Below are positions 20,309 through 36,254 of a DNA stretch of 64,000 nt, in pieces. The translations under genes and the position numbers were made by a program. Below the pieces are notes generated by a model, which did not search any database, was not told where the DNA came from, and saw only the letters and a list, made by a program, of their open reading frames with translations. Positions within the stretch are counted from its first letter, which is position 1. The number at the start of each line of letters is the position of its first letter. Where the stretch lies: assembly GCA_964538435.1 (NCBI GenBank), contig CAZIDX010000002.1, forward strand, positions 117,930-181,929. The letters run 5' to 3'. This DNA comes from an uncultured Gammaproteobacteria bacterium. Its GTDB lineage: Bacteria > Patescibacteriota > Patescibacteriia > UBA9934 > GWF2-40-263.

Positions 20309-20431
20309 CCCTCCTCGACCAAGCTCACTGCAACCGATCTTGCCCCGCAAGGTCGGTTTTCTCATTCCGACGAATCTCTAACACCTCACTACCTCCACCC
20401 AGAGGCCGGTTGCACACCAATTAAGGCGAGT

Positions 20432-20517
20432 GGTGCTGTGTGGGTATTTCACGAGGTGGTGGTCGTCTATACTGTGAGACGGCCCGGCTCCGCCGAGTGA
20501 AATACCCACACAGCACC
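20432..20517. repeat. 21-bp perfect inverted repeat (GGTGCTGTGTGGGTATTTCAC ... GTGAAATACCCACACAGCACC) with 44-nt spacer at right border of GC-rich island
   Basis: Read directly; both arms exact reverse complements. Confidence 0.6.
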
Positions 20518-20540
20518 ACGAGCCGATTCATAACAAATCA

Positions 20541-20726: not shown

Positions 20727-20855
20727 ATTTCATTCATTTACGGGCAGATTGTACTCATCTTACCTATTTTTGTCAATAGATCTCCCCATGCCCCACTCTG
20801 GATATCCAGACTTCACAAAAAACCCATCTTTTGATATTATTTCGCCGTTACCTGC

Positions 20856-20885
20856 GCCGTTGTAGCTCAGTCGGTAGAGCGCATC
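20856..20885 (+). other. 30-nt duplicate of the 5' end of tRNA-Thr(GGU)
   Basis: GCCGTTGTAGCTCAGTCGGTAGAGCGCATC identical to 21182-21211; followed by GC-rich hairpins, not by the rest of a tRNA. Confidence 0.7.
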
Positions 20886-20939
20886 TCCCGCCGTTGGCGG
20901 GACCCCGCCTCGTAATATGGCGGGGCATGGTAATGTAAT

Positions 20940-21182
20940 ATGCATTTCGTATACATTCTCTACAGTGAATCTCATAATCGTTATTACATCGGCTCTACAT
21001 CAGATATAGACAAACGTCTTGTTGCTCACAATTCTGGAAAAACCCGATCAACAAAACCTTTTAGGCCTTGGAGGATAGTTTATTCCAAAACACTAGAAAC
21101 GAACACTGAGGCAAGAAAAAGAGAAAACCAAATCAAAAGATACAAAGGAGGAGAAGCTTTCAAAAAACTCATAAACAACTAG
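20940..21182 (+). CDS. small GIY-YIG nuclease family protein (YhbQ/UPF0213-like)
   Basis: YILYSESHNRYYIGSTSDIDKRLVAHNSG (GIY...YIG...R...H/N), ...RENQIKRYK; stop codon overlaps first nucleotide of the tRNA. Confidence 0.8.
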   Translation: MHFVYILYSESHNRYYIGSTSDIDKRLVAHNSGKTRSTKPFRPWRIVYSKTLETNTEARKRENQIKRYKGGEAFKKLINN

Positions 21183-21257
21183 CCGTTGTAGCTCAGTCGG
21201 TAGAGCGCATCCATGGTAAGGATGAGGTCACCGGTTCAATCCCGGTCAACGGCTCCA
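21182..21257 (+). tRNA. tRNA-Thr (anticodon GGT)
   Basis: GCCGTTG acceptor, GCTC-AGTCGGTA-GAGC D arm, CATCC-ATGGTAA-GGATG anticodon arm, ACCGG-TTCAATC-CCGGT T arm, CAACGGC-T-CCA. Confidence 0.85.
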
Positions 21258-21294
21258 CGCAAAACACTCCAGCTTGCCTGGGGTGTTTTGCGTT
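21258..21294 (+). terminator. intrinsic terminator after tRNA-Thr
   Basis: gcaaaacactcc-agcttgcct-ggggtgttttgc. Confidence 0.5.
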
Positions 21295-22593: not shown

Positions 22594-22678
22594 GGGTCGG
22601 TACTCAAGCGGTCAACGAGGTCAGACTGTAAATCTGATGGCATCGCCTTCGCAGGTTCGAATCCTGCCCGGCCCACCA
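22594..22678 (+). tRNA. tRNA-Tyr (anticodon GTA), class II with long variable arm
   Basis: GGGTCGG acceptor, TCAGA-CTGTAAA-TCTGA anticodon arm, long variable arm, GCAGG-TTCGAAT-CCTGC, CCGGCCC-A-CCA. Confidence 0.85.
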
Positions 22679-22679
22679 T

Positions 22680-22755
22680 GCCACCTTAGCTCAGTTGGTA
22701 GAGCACCGGTTTTGTAAACCGTAGGTCGTCGGTTCGAGTCCGACAGGTGGCTCCA
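22680..22755 (+). tRNA. tRNA-Thr (anticodon TGT)
   Basis: GCCACCT acceptor, GCTC-AGTTGGTA-GAGC, anticodon loop TTTGTAA, GTCGG-TTCGAGT-CCGAC, AGGTGGC-T-CCA. Confidence 0.8.
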
Positions 22756-22855
22756 GAAAAACATTCAGAGAAATCTGAGTGTTTTTCTTTTCTAACAAGT
22801 TAATATTTTTTGCCTAAGCCTAAGCAAATTTTGCTTAAATTAGCGTCAGGATCAC

Positions 22856-31991: not shown

Positions 31992-32042
31992 GTGCCTACA
32001 ACATGAGAAGAAAGAAATTGCTTCTCGTACACTACAACTTAG

Positions 32043-32172
32043 ATCTCTGGGGAGAGAGCCGATAAGACCACGGTAAATGGTCTTCAACAGGAATCTAGCA
32101 AAAGCTAGAAAGCCGGTTGTTGTATGTATCTGACTCACTCCACAGAAAGATGCATTCAACAACCGGCTTTTT
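32043..32172 (+). ncRNA. sRNA/attenuator unit beginning CUGGGGAGAGAG and ending in a terminator hairpin (agccggttgttg ... caacaaccggct + TTTTT)
   Basis: Homologous 5' motif and AAUGG element to sRNA at 22891; 12-bp terminator stem. Confidence 0.4.
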
Positions 32173-32318
32173 CTTATAGAAACATAGGGCGTTCATGATT
32201 GAGACCAATTTTGGTGAACGGGATGTCAGCGCCAGAGGCGTACTGAAACGTACGTCGACAAGCTGACAGGGACCCGTGAGCCAAAAGTGGGCCGATCAGG
32301 AATGCGCTTATATCCAGT

Positions 32319-32745
32319 CTCATGGAGGAGAGAGAAAACCGTCCGAGGAACTTCTTTATGAAGAACCTTGGCGGCGATCACTGAATGGTTCCACTCGGTT
32401 TAACCCGCTTGCGGGTCCTAGCTGACTGAATCCATACGCCAAGTGATCACGAATGATACTCGAGCTTGCTCAAGTCACTCATTCACCCCTACCCCTCCAG
32501 GAGACTGCATATAACTTCCAACCGGGAAATTCGGAGGAGAGAGAAAACCCGTTCGATTGATCTCAACAGAGTGACATCGACGGTGAACATCAAATGGTTC
32601 GACTCGGCACGTCTGACTCGATCCATACTACCGATGTTCAAGATGTACACCAGCCCTCGGGCAGGTCACTACAATTTTCTTCTCCGGTTTCCCCGGCCGG
32701 ACCTGATCAGTCCATTCCAAGCCGAGGGGTGCACCCAAACCGTTC
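32319..32745 (+). repeat. tandem duplication of a ~214-nt structured unit (starts 32319 and 32533), each beginning GGAGGAGAGAGAAAACC and containing AAUGGUUCSACUCGG and GAWYCCAUAC blocks
   Basis: Blocks align at constant spacing between the two units. Confidence 0.5.
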
Positions 32746-32760
32746 GAGGAGGACTCCACA

Positions 32761-33029
32761 TGAACACCCGCACCGCCACCACGACCGCCATCTCCGCCAC
32801 CTCCGTGACCATGAGCGACTGGCTCGCCGGTGACGTCGAAGATTTCAGCCTCATCGAGGCCGACATCGACGACATCGACACCGACGACTTCCACGCCACG
32901 ACCCTGGAGGAGAGCGTCGAGATCATCGCGGCCCTGGGCACCATCGCCCTGACCGCGGTGCTGATCGCCAGCACCTTCCCCAACATCACCGAGGCCGTCA
33001 CCGGCGGCCTGAGCTTCATCCTCTTCTAG
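32761..33029 (+). CDS. small protein (89 aa), acidic N-terminal half and hydrophobic C-terminal half
   Basis: ATG 32761 after GGAGGA; high GC3. Confidence 0.4.
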
Positions 33030-33474
33030 AGGGAAGCTCGCCTGCTACTAGGTGCAGGCAACGGGGGCGACGCTAACGCAATTGCGTCGCCTATCCCAAT
33101 GAGAACTGGATCCATGCTTCCAGTGCTCATCAGGATACCGATCCTTACAAAGAATGATCTCCGCGACGCACGATTGAATCTCGATCCTGCATCGCGGAAA
33201 TCATCAAAGCAAATATCCAATCAGATCAAAAAGACTGCACACCTAAACACTGTTAACAAGAAACCTAATAGCGAAAGCGAACTGGAATCAAGTTAATAAG
33301 AATAGGCAGAGAAGTGAAGGGGGTGAAAAGGAGCTTCGGCTCCCAACCACAACCAGATCATCTCGCGTGCACCTTTCTGAACTGGATGGAGGAAGCTGAA
33401 GCTGATGGGCGTGGTGCCCACCCCGCAACAGTAGAGTAGGGCACCAGCCCAAAACAAACAGGCTGCCCAAAACA

Positions 33475-35148
33475 GTGGGTAGCACAGCGCACTGGAGTAC
33501 ACCCATGACCACCTCCCCCGCCAACCTGACCTCCCCCGTCTGCACCGACGCCCAGGGCCGCGACTGGACCTCCGACGAGGCCAAGGCCCGCCGCGCCATG
33601 AAGGCCTGGGCGCGTCTCAACGGTCGCCGCCAGGAAGAGCCGAAGATTCGCGAGCTCCAGGCGTCCGAGGGCGGTCTGGGCTGGCACACCATCGGCGACG
33701 AGAACTGCTTCGACCTCGAGATCGACATGAACGACCGCGGCTGGTTCGAGATCGACCAGTTCGCCACCGACGAGGTCGTGTCCAACCTGATGGGCGTCGA
33801 GACCAGCACCAACATCGACCTGGCCACCGCCCTGACCGACGAGATCGTCCGCGACGAGGCCTGCCTCGACGCGATCCGCGTGCTCATCGACACCGTGGGC
33901 TACGCCCAGGCCATGTCCAAGCTCGAGGAGATCATCACGATCACCAAGGGCGAGGACGAGGACGGCCCCTACGTCGACATCGACATGGGTGACTTCCCGG
34001 CCATGGTCGAGGCATACCGCACGGTCGCGACCGACCCCCTGGTCACCCAGTGCGACATCCCGATCTGCTGGCTCGTCGGCTTCAACGGCGCTCCTCTGGG
34101 CGTCAACGGCCTGGCCACCATCGAGCAGGCCATCGACAACGCCGAAGAGCTCGACATCGACTGGCGCCTCTGGATCGAGGGCGACGAGGACGAGCAGTGC
34201 ACCGCCATGCACGTCGTCACCGAGCTCGCGTCCCGGCTGCAGGGCAAGGTCAAGCGCGTCCGCGCCCAGGCCGAGCGCGCCGAGCGTCAGGCCAAGGCCC
34301 AGCGCAAGGCCGCCGAGCGCGCCGAGCGTCAGGCCAAGGCCCAGCGCAAGGCCGCCGAGCGCGAGACCACCCAGAAGGTCGAGACCCCCAAGGTCGAGAC
34401 CGACTGGATGGGTCGCGTCCAGGGCCCCAGCGGCGAAGCCATGTTCCAGTGCACCGGCCGCCGGTACGTCCCGCCCGCCACCAACGACCAGAGCCCGTTC
34501 GGCGCCCAGGGCCCGACCGAGGGCACGCACGAGCTGTGCCAGGTCAAGGGCTCGGCCGACTACATGTACGTCGGCTCCCTGGACTCCATGTGGCGGCGTC
34601 AGAACCGCAACGTGGTCGAGGTCTGGCACCTGGCCAACCATGCGCTCTGCCCGAGCTGCATGGAGCGGATCTCCCGGTCCGTGGCCCGGAAGAACGGTGG
34701 CAACCGCCCGTTCTTCCAGACCGTCAGCGAGGCGATCGACCTCATCGAGGCCGAGGAGCGCAAGCTCGAGAACAACAACACGTTCTTGCGCACGCCCGGC
34801 ATGGACTCGTCCATGCGCGCCTCCCGGTTCGCCGTCAAGGTGGACTGGGCCGCAGACGACGCGTGGAAGACCCTGGCCAATCGCGCACCGAACCTGTCCG
34901 GCGCCCAGTGGGCGGCCCTGCGCCACTCGCTCCAGCTGGGCACCCTGGACCTGACGGTGCTCACGCGCCAGATCGTCCCAGGCTGGGAAGTCGACGGCGA
35001 CGCAGGCTACATCGGCTACTGGCTGATCTGCAAGCTCGAGCGCGACCAGGTCGCGTGGCAGAACCGCCAGCGCGAGCGCAGCGCCCGCAAGAACGCGCGC
35101 AACCGCCACGGCCGCGGCCAGTCGCACGAAGCGCCCTGGATGCGCTAG
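33475..35148 (+). CDS. hypothetical protein, very G+C-rich, with internal coiled-coil tandem repeat and Cys pairs
   Basis: Plus frame has high GC3 and protein-like composition; the longer minus ORF 33358..35397 is L/A/G/R/V-rich antisense. Confidence 0.6.
   Translation: MGSTAHWSTPMTTSPANLTSPVCTDAQGRDWTSDEAKARRAMKAWARLNGRRQEEPKIRELQASEGGLGWHTIGDENCFDLEIDMNDRGWFEIDQFATDEVVSNLMGVETSTNIDLATALTDEIVRDEACLDAIRVLIDTVGYAQAMSKLEEIITITKGEDEDGPYVDIDMGDFPAMVEAYRTVATDPLVTQCDIPICWLVGFNGAPLGVNGLATIEQAIDNAEELDIDWRLWIEGDEDEQCTAMHVVTELASRLQGKVKRVRAQAERAERQAKAQRKAAERAERQAKAQRKAAERETTQKVETPKVETDWMGRVQGPSGEAMFQCTGRRYVPPATNDQSPFGAQGPTEGTHELCQVKGSADYMYVGSLDSMWRRQNRNVVEVWHLANHALCPSCMERISRSVARKNGGNRPFFQTVSEAIDLIEAEERKLENNNTFLRTPGMDSSMRASRFAVKVDWAADDAWKTLANRAPNLSGAQWAALRHSLQLGTLDLTVLTRQIVPGWEVDGDAGYIGYWLICKLERDQVAWQNRQRERSARKNARNRHGRGQSHEAPWMR
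34279..34362 (+). repeat. perfect 42-bp tandem repeat x2 inside CDS (encodes AERQAKAQRKAAER twice)
   Basis: gccgagcgtcaggccaaggcccagcgcaaggccgccgagcgc repeated exactly. Confidence 0.7.
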
Positions 35149-35519
35149 TGCGACCGCAGGCATGAGGCTCCCTGCATGAAAAGAAGCCCAAAGGGTACTC
35201 CTAAACCCTCCACCTGCTTGAAGGTGGTTAATCCGAGAGGATGGAGTTGAGCAGCCGCAAGCTTCTCGTAAAACCGAAACCGCCCCTGTACGCAACAGGG
35301 AGGACGGGCCGATCGCGTAAAAAACGATCGGCCATCCCTCAGAGAGGTTTAGACTCATGAAACAGTCTAGAAACCTCTGACCGGATAACCAGAACAACCA
35401 AGTCCGATTTTGTCACGGACTTTAGACCTACCAAACAAAAACCCATCCACCGACAAGGTGGAGATCAGTCTGGCCTTTAGCAAGCCAGAACGACAAACTG
35501 ATCAGATCCTTGAAGGAGG

Positions 35520-36254
35520 ATGCTCATGTCCCATCGCAACACCAGCCCCTTCGGCGCCCAGTCCAACCCCAACCGCCGTCGCAACCGCCGCCCCCGCCGC
35601 CCGACCTTCGAGATCTGCCTCAAGGCCCTCGCGGTGTACACGCGGTTCATCTTCATGAGCCGTCTCCCCCACCCGGCCGACGCCAGCGACGAGGCCAAGA
35701 ACACCCTGTTCACCCAGGCCACGGACTCCTACGTCCCCTGGGCCAAGGGCTCCTACGCCTCCGCCAACGGCACCCGCCTGTGGGCCCGCGGCATCGCGCG
35801 CGTGGACGGCACCGAGGACAAGCTCCAGGCCATGCTCGACGAGATCGAGAAGCCCGAGCTCGTGCGCGTCAAGCGCGGCAACGCCCTGACCACCAAGGTC
35901 AACGGCAAGCCCGTACCCTTGGCCGACCGCCAGGTGTACGTCCTCAAGGTCGCCGGCATGGCCCTGCTGCTGGGTTGCCACCCCAACAGCATCACCCCCA
36001 CCAACACCAAGTCCGCCTTCGCCAAGGACGACTTGGTGGGCCCCCAGCGGATCGGCACCCGCGCCAGCCAGGAACTCATCCAGCGCATCTTCCCGAGCGC
36101 CATGCTGGCCGAGTTCAACGCCGAGTTCGAGGCAGCGGCCCCCAAGGCCAAGGCCCAGAACAAGGTCGAGGACGGCGCCGAGGTCACCGAGCTCCCCACC
36201 CCGGCCCCGGCCGACACCTCCGTCAAGCCCGCTCCCGCGGCCGAGGCCTGCTAG
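35520..36254 (+). CDS. hypothetical protein, very G+C-rich; shares SPFGAQ motif with upstream neighbour
   Basis: Protein-like frame; ORF 35510..36280 in the other frame is R/P/G-rich artefact. Confidence 0.55.
   Translation: MLMSHRNTSPFGAQSNPNRRRNRRPRRPTFEICLKALAVYTRFIFMSRLPHPADASDEAKNTLFTQATDSYVPWAKGSYASANGTRLWARGIARVDGTEDKLQAMLDEIEKPELVRVKRGNALTTKVNGKPVPLADRQVYVLKVAGMALLLGCHPNSITPTNTKSAFAKDDLVGPQRIGTRASQELIQRIFPSAMLAEFNAEFEAAAPKAKAQNKVEDGAEVTELPTPAPADTSVKPAPAAEAC

Follow-up and report, generated by a model that had tools for sequence, protein, structure and literature searches.

The subject of this study is a tRNA-Thr(GGU) gene within a 64,000-nucleotide stretch of contig CAZIDX010000002.1 (assembly GCA_964538435.1; hereafter the window), which is preceded by a fragment of its own 5' part, a GC-rich double hairpin, and an 80-codon open reading frame (ORF) for a small GIY-YIG nuclease of the UPF0213/YhbQ type. 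Throughout, a fragment of a neighbouring tRNA is called a psi-tRNA or psi piece, and the GC-rich hairpin module is called HP. The best explanation of this arrangement, to which we assign a probability of about 45%, is that it belongs to a widespread family of selfish cassettes resident in tRNA genes. That there is a family of selfish, recombination-active cassettes at tRNA loci is highly probable. The specific mechanism, an HP-ended element that travels with a spare tRNA, is put forward tentatively, with somewhat less than an even chance of being right.

Anatomy of the tRNA-Thr(GGU) locus and its GIY-YIG protein

The first 30 nt of tRNA-Thr(GGU), GCCGTTGTAGCTCAGTCGGTAGAGCGCATC, occur twice in the window with 100% identity, once as the left piece of the psi-tRNA and again at 21182-21211 as the beginning of the intact gene, which is called by both ARAGORN and Rfam (68.7 bits in the latter); 296 bp lie between the two copies. 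The upstream copy is followed by two perfect 7-bp GC hairpins, TCCCGCC-GTT-GGCGGGA (20886-20902) and CCCCGCC-TCGTAATAT-GGCGGGG (20903-20925), a double pattern that is unique within the 64 kb, where 0.04 chance matches are expected. Directly 3' of the second hairpin stands CATGGTAA, which corresponds to positions 31-38 of the same tRNA. Since the tRNA sequence resumes at exactly this point, the upstream copy is 38 nt long, and the hairpins make up 40 bp that have been inserted exactly where tRNA position 30 meets position 31. The earlier note on this DNA had described a 30-nt duplication and a 296-bp insert that opens with two hairpins. The repeated 30-mer and the hairpins are both real, but the duplicate extends over 38 nt and is no simple 30-nt target duplication, and the hairpins form a separate insertion of their own. 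The ORF starts 6 nt past the end of the psi-tRNA remnant and, as the same note had recognized, its TAG stop (21180-21182) overlaps the tRNA gene, its final G being tRNA position +1. The features of the locus are collected in Table 1.

Table 1. Features of the tRNA-Thr(GGU) locus, in window coordinates
Feature	Position	Strand	Remarks
Promoter-like site TTCACA-17 nt-TATTAT with upstream TG	20812..20840	+	consensus match; 16 nt before psi-tRNA
psi-tRNA-Thr(GGU), left piece, tRNA positions 1-30	20856..20885	+	30/30 identical to intact gene
HP module, 40-bp double hairpin at site CATC^CATGG, between tRNA positions 30/31	20886..20925	+	
psi-tRNA-Thr(GGU), right piece CATGGTAA, positions 31-38	20926..20933	+	8/8; remainder of copy missing
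80-codon UPF0213/YhbQ-type GIY-YIG nuclease ORF	20940..21182	+	TAG stop overlaps tRNA +1
Intact tRNA-Thr(GGU) with encoded CCA end	21182..21257	+	ARAGORN and Rfam
Hairpin with 16-bp arms directly 3' of tRNA	21257..21293	+	inverted repeat I3, 94% complementary; no T tract

At the window locus, the ORF has no Shine-Dalgarno sequence, promoter, or terminator of its own. The promoter-like site is presumed to be the native promoter of tRNA-Thr, which, judging from its sequence, may now drive the psi-tRNA, the HP, the ORF, and the tRNA as one transcript. From this site to the intact tRNA, the window scan detected neither a second plus-strand promoter of comparable quality nor anything resembling a terminator, so that the ORF and the tRNA most likely share one transcript. 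The hairpin directly 3' of the tRNA is likely to be the end of the transcription unit; the promoter/terminator scan did not score it as a canonical terminator.

The encoded protein matches the Pfam GIY-YIG family (PF01541; E=5e-17, 62.4 bits against a cut-off of 22.6) and two solved UPF0213 structures, PDB 1ZG2 (E=2.7e-6) and PDB 1YWL (E=4.8e-5), which bears out its earlier description as an 80-aa YhbQ-like GIY-YIG protein. Residues Y5, Y16, G18, R26, H30, N31, E62, and K66, which are invariant or nearly so across 33 homologues, are all present, and the catalytic set predicted from the alignment (the Tyr of GIY, the Tyr of YIG, Arg, His, and Glu) is complete. In a Foldseek search with an AlphaFold model of the protein (pLDDT 95.4), the nearest folds are the two UPF0213 nuclear magnetic resonance structures and then Slx1 (TM-score 0.66-0.73, rmsd 1.6-3 A), with I-TevI and UvrC as weaker matches. 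As modeled, the protein is nearer to the structure-selective nuclease Slx1 than to homing enzymes of the I-TevI type. The catalytic domain spans residues 1-67 or more of the 80, and neither Pfam nor the AlphaFold model indicates a further domain, hence no DNA-binding domain. NCBIfam, PADLOC, and PHROG returned weak partial matches alone; as the last two and six weak phage hits were all that pointed that way, an origin in a defence system or a phage was rejected.

A database look-up found no exact copy of this protein on record. Its homologues are 79-110-aa proteins annotated as "GIY-YIG nuclease family proteins," the closest of them from Patescibacteria, and the UPF0213-type family comprises 7,634 clusters at 50% identity (E<=1e-3). 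Premature stops or truncations are found in roughly 10-15% of the family copies. Many other homologues carry N-terminal extensions of 20-50 aa or two GIY domains; such extended and doubled proteins are probably gene calls that run through hairpins, psi-tRNAs, or tandem arrays. In several homologues (P0008, P0011, and P0015), the C-terminal tail RSNPA(P/S/L)GGTPPS(E/K) is a translated psi-tRNA-Tyr D loop plus HP (compare L010:2730-2800).

Recurrence of the cassette and of its hairpin module

A scan of one genome per species with a query alignment of 10 sequences gave 59 loci, and the overall set of loci, which includes loci picked by protein and loci picked by the HP motif, comprises 183 sequences. 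These hold 93 homologous ORFs, 74 of which have a tRNA within 300 nt, on the same strand in 74/74 cases and on the opposite strand in 0; about 75% of the ORFs bear fragments of the neighbouring tRNA. In the set selected by protein only, an intact same-strand tRNA lies within 200 nt of 48 of the 63 ORFs (33 downstream, 18 upstream), and psi fragments at least 95% identical to a tRNA of the same locus accompany 47 of the 63, so that small GIY-YIG genes beside partial tRNA duplications, which the earlier note had suggested looking for elsewhere, are indeed found there. At least 15 different tRNA species are involved, and the layout is carried by at least six bacterial phyla, the hosts being Patescibacteria, Bacteroidota, Ignavibacteriota, Omnitrophota, Verrucomicrobiota including Akkermansia, Planctomycetales/Lentisphaerales, and Dehalococcoidales (Chloroflexota). 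Akkermansia muciniphila is a well-sampled and cultivable species. Metagenome-assembled genomes (MAGs) assigned to it (L049 and L058) carry a family member, with the copy in L058 lying 126 nt downstream of tRNA-Ser(CGA).

More than 40 loci, spread over many tRNAs and phyla, show the minimal layout of about 0.3 kb, and none of these recurring loci contains an integrase. This bears on the suggestion, also made in the earlier note, that the layout mirrors integrase action and that the gene might be what is left of a larger insertion. Partial tRNA direct repeats flanking foreign DNA are indeed a hallmark of tRNA-targeting integrative elements, and a larger island could in principle have once occupied the tRNA gene and decayed. 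However, the repeated portion here is the 5' part of the tRNA and not the 3' part, no integrase is present, and the same minimal layout stands in dozens of loci at the many tRNA species counted above. We consider descent from such an island hardly credible.

Two mirror-image forms of the cassette can be distinguished. In form A, to which the window belongs, a 5' psi-tRNA part is followed by the ORF and the intact tRNA; in form B, the intact tRNA is followed by the ORF and a 3' psi-tRNA part. The three loci closest to the window share its layout: the first has tRNA-Thr(GGU) positions 1-30, HP, positions 31-37, ORF, and intact tRNA (L001), the second has tRNA-Ser(CGA) positions 1-23, HP, ORF, and tRNA (L002), and the third has two psi-tRNA-Ser(UGA) copies with an HP after each (L003). 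A few ORFs are wedged between two different intact tRNAs with 3-nt gaps (L011 and L007), and tandem arrays occur in L003, L010, and L030. The stop codon overlaps or falls inside the tRNA gene in 28 of the 44 intact form-A ORFs, with a further 9 at gaps of 0-10 nt. Stops that fall within the tRNA (e.g. L023:2743-2767 and L027:2731-2740) often coincide with the TAG in the D-arm sequences GTAGCTC or GTCTAG. Overall, gaps between ORF and tRNA span -79 to +84 nt, and some of the tRNA genes lack an encoded CCA, which makes it unnecessary to assume that the +1 junction arose at the RNA level, whether by retro-transposition or as an end defined by RNase P.

The hairpins behave as a module in their own right. 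There are 30 distinct cases in which the tRNA numbering runs on from the psi piece left of the HP to the one on its right, with nothing repeated or lost (e.g. 1-12/13-24, 1-38/39-55, 45-55/56-76, and 1-30/31-61, the last as in L009, where the tRNA resumes for 31 nt after the HP), so that the HP is an exact insertion. It is 18-93 nt long, starts with TCC.. or CC.., and ends with ..GGA or ..GGG. Its sequence is lineage specific: Patescibacteria and Omnitrophota have TCCCGCC/GGCGGGA plus CCCCGCC/GGCGGGG, Flavobacteria have CCCGCCCGAACG.../...CGGGCGGG, and Ignavibacteria and Saccharibacteria have other sequences. Compensatory stem variants (TCCCGCT/AGCGGGA, TCCCGTC/GACGGGA, and TCCCGAT/ATCGGGA) are given here in place of a formal count of stem pairs because the variable loops block a clean alignment. 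The HP is inserted in the D loop, in the stem or loop of the anticodon arm, or in the T loop, and shows a preference, in its own orientation, for T-N^C-A; of 74 cases, 50 have T at -2, 51 have C at +1, and 42 have A at +2. HPs that are reversed relative to the tRNA keep T-N^C-A on their own strand (L090, and Thr-UGU in L009 and L012), and one psi-tRNA holds two HPs (L015). Neither the HP nor the psi-tRNA leader has an Rfam family at the gathering threshold or at E<=0.1.

The position of the HP follows the ORF. A GC-rich hairpin lies within 120 nt upstream of the ATG in 38 of the 44 ORFs with a tRNA just downstream (form A) and at the stop codon in 9 of the 13 with a tRNA upstream (form B); in both forms it stands at the end of the ORF opposite the intact tRNA. 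Hairpins are also more frequent in ORF flanks (40/62) than in control windows (22/180). Between the orthologous cassettes of Flavimarina and Leeuwenhoekiella, the HP is identical at 33/34 positions and the psi piece at 22/22, whereas identity is 9/21 over the next 21 nt, 53% in the upstream region, and 54% at ORF third positions. The contrast between the HP and its neighbouring spacer shows conservation of the HP well beyond the neutral level and indicates that it is constrained or homogenized.

An unbiased metagenome scan for the double hairpin of the Patescibacteria type gave at least 120 stretches. Among the matches listed, a GIY ORF lies within 400 nt of 11 of the 76 parsed HP doublets and a tRNA within 600 nt of 22, with others in intergenic DNA of organisms of 32-77% GC; the loci selected by the HP motif hold, among those same matches, 31.6 GIY ORFs per Mb, mostly adjoining the HP. 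Where an HP sits in tRNA-derived sequence without an ORF, an intact copy of the same tRNA still adjoins it (L122, L128, L071, L067, L084, L103, L111, L126, and L159). The HP is thus a separate, directional, palindromic module that can be found with no ORF beside it and outside tRNA loci as well.

It could be argued that the two components are unrelated passengers, a mobile or duplicated ORF having produced a dispensable tRNA fragment in which an independent palindrome, similar to a repetitive extragenic palindrome (REP) or a miniature inverted-repeat transposable element (MITE), settled by means of another enzyme, because non-essential T-N^C-A DNA is scarce in compact genomes. The wide distribution of HP doublets without a GIY ORF or tRNA just described is consistent with this view, as are the occurrence of HP in both orientations and the presence of a single HP in the window. 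We nevertheless hold it to be improbable. The lone HP of 64 kb lies inside a 38-nt remnant, and such placement is found repeatedly, in unrelated lineages and with different hairpin sequences; the proximity of hairpin to ORF in form A, the conservation of the HP relative to its adjacent spacer, and the density of GIY ORFs near HPs (for the matches listed) also argue against it.

Two variants of the module were observed in passing. An HP subfamily chiefly of soil-metagenome origin (L070, L074, L081, L132, L140, L141, and L178) has a conserved second loop, (C/G)TCTTTGATGAGAGAGAAGTG, and is surrounded by further REP-like palindromes; neither a tRNA nor a GIY gene is close by. Strings resembling GAUGAG in this second loop raised the idea of a ribozyme, which was dropped as there is no hammerhead architecture. 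At L130:3373-3560, half-modules TCCCGCC..GGCGGGACCCCGCCCTCTTTG are arranged head to tail, like a short satellite of the hairpin unit.

Proposed movement of the cassette and competing explanations

That the family is mobile is inferred from its variable positions, its changes of target, its arrays, and its decayed copies. Relatives that are 68-77% identical occupy different tRNAs (Ser-UGA, Ser-CGA, Tyr, and Thr-GGU), and at least three different ORF slots are used in a conserved Thr-Tyr-Thr cluster among Patescibacteria genomes. A tRNA-Glu(UUC) cassette with its HP at the same anticodon position is found in genomes labeled Omnitrophota, Planctomycetales, and Kerfeldbacteria. The psi pieces carry the lineage-specific substitutions of the local tRNA, which indicates gene conversion or re-insertion. 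With respect to the Thr-Tyr-Thr cluster, we note that cassettes of the Patescibacteria type together with this cluster are also present in MAGs labeled "uncultured Gammaproteobacteria" (L005, L007, L011, and L025), a label that looks doubtful for these genomes. In the window, tRNA-Tyr(GTA) and tRNA-Thr(TGT) lie 1 base apart at 22594-22755, followed by a 15-bp hairpin at 22755-22788; this pair has no psi fragment or HP, in contrast to related genomes.

The loci that point to a mechanism are composites of the form psi5'(1-38)-HP-...ORF-intact tRNA...-HP-psi3'(39-76), found at tRNA-Glu (L023, L044, and L121) and at tRNA-Ser (L090). In these four, an HP-bounded unit with the nuclease gene and a complete tRNA occupies a single site of a split tRNA. 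The sequence of the outer halves departs from that of the intact tRNA inside in two of them (L090 and L023); the acceptor stems of L090 read GGAGAGG/CCTCTCC for the outer halves and GGAGGCG/CGCCTCC for the intact gene. Such loci suggest a hairpin-ended element that is mobilized by a structure-selective nuclease and carries a spare tRNA, and it is on their account that we favor this mechanism. The HP would form the element's end and, as hairpin or cruciform DNA, would also be the structure on which the small nuclease acts. HP-ended units would insert directionally at T-N^C-A sites, of a kind that the D, anticodon, and T loops of tRNA genes expose. A unit of the form HP-ORF-tRNA-HP could enter an essential resident tRNA without killing the cell because it brings an intact spare. 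The spare tRNA would then recombine by homology with the two halves of the broken resident gene, which would trim the locus to either psi5'-HP-ORF-tRNA, the form of the window, or an ORF-less relic, tRNA-psi-HP-psi3'. Relics of this predicted form are found (L084, L103, L111, L126, L159, L122, and L128), and the window copy would itself be a trimmed derivative. A simple staggered-cut target duplication was also considered and does not fit, since the HP and the ORF stand at two different psi-tRNA positions.

The layout would also have consequences for expression. RNase P has an established cleavage activity at tRNA +1. If the ORF is read from the tRNA precursor, cleavage at +1 would remove its stop codon and, where the stop overlaps or lies inside the tRNA, leave a non-stop mRNA. 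Translation and tRNA maturation would then be mutually exclusive, any one transcript being either fully translated or matured to tRNA but not both, and this would hold nuclease levels low.

There is a substantial, though less than even, chance that this constitutes a new class of prokaryotic transposable element, in which an 80-aa Slx1-like GIY-YIG nuclease mobilizes HP-ended modules at T-N^C-A sites of tRNA loops and the autonomous form carries a spare of its target tRNA; solo double hairpins, from Patescibacteria to soil bacteria, would then be non-autonomous, MITE-like derivatives. Several observations weigh against the reading of the window feature as a copy of a selfish family moving in this way. 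We know of no GIY-YIG transposase. The HP and the GIY ORF are each single-copy in the window. More than 80% of the HP doublets found by motif, among the matches listed, have no GIY ORF nearby, and many are in high-GC organisms, so that a different enzyme could move the HP, or the HP could simply be a REP-like repeat accumulating in dispensable DNA. The two-HP composite is known from two independent tRNA contexts only, and in L012, the HPs stand at different tRNA positions (12/13 and 55/56), which insertion at a single site does not explain. Finally, searches at the window locus and at a Leeuwenhoekiella tRNA-Ala cassette found no pair of filled and empty alleles, so that the ends of the element are deduced rather than observed. 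For the window, homologues of the downstream MFS gene led to the source genome, one 68%-identical relative, and non-syntenic loci only; for Leeuwenhoekiella, where the neighbouring XRE/ImmA gene was used, the synteny of tRNA-Ala is not kept in the relatives fetched.

Another observation on the same side, the vertical inheritance of the Leeuwenhoekiella cassette with its ORF under purifying selection (dN/dS 0.12 for L027 vs L028, Leeuwenhoekiella/Flavimarina), is also in line with a useful host gene. The gene could be a domesticated, Slx1-like repair nuclease expressed from tRNA operons, with psi-tRNAs and hairpins as by-products of recombination at strongly transcribed tRNA genes or as protection of the mRNA end. 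Processing of the tRNA defines one end of the mRNA and the HP always lies at the other, and UPF0213 is widespread, with the thousands of clusters given above, both of which are in line with domestication. However, the distribution is patchy and multi-copy, with variable positions, tandem arrays, and the proportion of pseudogenes noted earlier; a stop inside or overlapping the tRNA in 28/44 cases implies poor expression; and the ORF-less psi-HP units have no mRNA to protect. We regard domestication as quite improbable.

The main rival to an HP-ended element is free-standing homing of the kind known from phage T4, whose SegB is a free-standing GIY-YIG homing endonuclease in a tRNA gene cluster and recognizes the conserved T-psi-C motif (PMC2330249). 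In this scheme, the nuclease would cut an intact tRNA gene that lacks the cassette, and repair would use the psi-tRNA as the left arm and the intact tRNA as the right arm; the HP would be secondary, either destroying the cleavage site in the psi arm or limiting the psi-by-tRNA recombination that deletes the ORF. Beyond the SegB precedent, the scheme is consistent with psi arms that as a rule match the local tRNA at 100% and share its lineage-specific substitutions, with the recurrence of the same tRNA-Glu(UUC) cassette and HP position in Omnitrophota, Planctomycetales-labeled, and Kerfeldbacteria genomes, and with copies that decay as in the life cycle of homing endonucleases. Nevertheless, we think it unlikely. 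The protein consists of the catalytic domain only, with no DNA-binding domain and a fold nearer to Slx1 than to I-TevI. The intact tRNA, which is the presumed target, survives beside the gene and is identical to the psi-tRNA over positions 1-38, leaving the carrier without immunity, so that classical homing logic, whereby the target is lost on insertion, does not obviously apply. Close relatives stand at unrelated tRNAs (Thr-GGU vs Ser-UGA at 70% identity), and ORF-less psi-HP units, solo HPs outside tRNAs, and the HP's own target motif are left unexplained. Of the earlier note's proposal of a small homing-type mobile cassette, what stands is a selfish-looking, minimal GIY-YIG cassette tied to tRNA genes; the homing part is where the intact target, the missing DNA-binding domain, and the likeness to Slx1 stand in the way.

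Two further features of the window lie outside the cassette. Just downstream of rpmG on the minus strand, at 20425-20524, is an inverted repeat (arms of 35 nt, perfect stem of 23 bp), the RNA of which folds at -62.7 kcal/mol (z = -8.1 vs shuffles) and is far stabler than an ordinary terminator. Positions 32001-36000 have 61% G+C, against 43-55% elsewhere, with several long overlapping ORFs on both strands, and may be foreign or otherwise unusual DNA.

Significance and comparison with known systems

The tRNA-gene-resident GIY-YIG/HP family is apparently undescribed so far. In the literature searched, we found no description of a function, genomic context, or mobility for UPF0213, and no account of UPF0213/YhbQ genes at tRNA loci, of tRNA fragments split by hairpins, or of the HP; a phylogenomic study of GIY-YIG proteins places such proteins in the Slx1 cluster and gives no function. 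If our interpretation is true, it would provide a first biological context for UPF0213/YhbQ, with its two solved structures and thousands of clusters, and would show that tRNA genes, essential and ultra-conserved as they are, can host dedicated minimal selfish DNA in cells, even the most streamlined (Patescibacteria). If the hairpin-end model is also true, a GIY-YIG enzyme would join the short list of transposition catalysts, and a strategy of "bring your own spare target" would be of interest for the study of mobile elements and possibly for small programmable tools for DNA insertion. The cassettes also account for stray tRNA fragments and ORF stops inside tRNA genes, and probably for over-long or doubled calls of "GIY-YIG nuclease family protein," all of which bear on the annotation of MAGs.

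With Slx1 and the UPF0213/YhbQ proteins (1ZG2 and 1YWL), the window protein shares its sequence family, its closest folds, and the catalytic Tyr/Tyr/Arg/His/Glu set. Slx1, a eukaryotic enzyme that cleaves branched DNA and stem-loops, depends on Slx4 and has a RING domain. Unlike Slx1, the window protein has no RING domain, and its nuclease activity is predicted from sequence.

As for the hairpins, the REP/BIME-RAYT and IS200/IS605 systems, the latter with their PATE/MITE derivatives, have short GC-rich palindromes, often as inverted doublets, with many non-autonomous copies per autonomous gene. Elements of REP/BIME-RAYT and IS200/IS605 are moved by HUH Y1 transposases and insert without target duplication beside a short motif, with a strand or orientation bias. 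The HP resembles IS200/IS605-PATE or REP-RAYT in its hairpins, its lack of target duplication (the 30 precise insertions), and its short T-N^C-A motif. It is unlike them in sitting mostly in tRNA-derived sequence and in that the autonomous unit seems to carry a tRNA. Within the locus stretches, no HUH Y1 transposase (TnpA or RAYT) is linked to the HP, and the sole linked ORF is the GIY-YIG gene.

Integrative elements that target tRNA genes are kilobases long, encode a tyrosine integrase, and duplicate the 3' part of the tRNA. The cassette is similar to them in placing foreign DNA in a tRNA gene, regenerating the gene, and leaving a partial tRNA repeat, and differs in having, in the window, a repeat of the 5' part, an insert of 0.3 kb, and no integrase. 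Group I introns with homing endonuclease genes have been described in bacterial tRNA genes, including those of Patescibacteria (PMC13011429). They share with the cassette the residence of selfish DNA in tRNA genes of the same phylum while the tRNA stays functional. In the cassette, however, tRNA function is kept by duplication and not by splicing, and the sites are not limited to the anticodon loop; the window has a complete, uninterrupted tRNA, and neither the window nor the related loci have an Rfam intron match.

The closest described system is SegB of phage T4 (PMC2330249). Like it, the family consists of a selfish GIY-YIG gene lying among tRNA genes and co-oriented with them, with tRNA genes serving as flanking homology. 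SegB, however, is a full-length enzyme with a DNA-binding region, belongs to a phage, and has neither a partial tRNA duplicate nor a hairpin module, whereas the cassette in the window encodes an 80-aa catalytic domain, is of a kind found in cellular genomes, is joined to tRNA position +1, and comes with a psi-tRNA and an HP.

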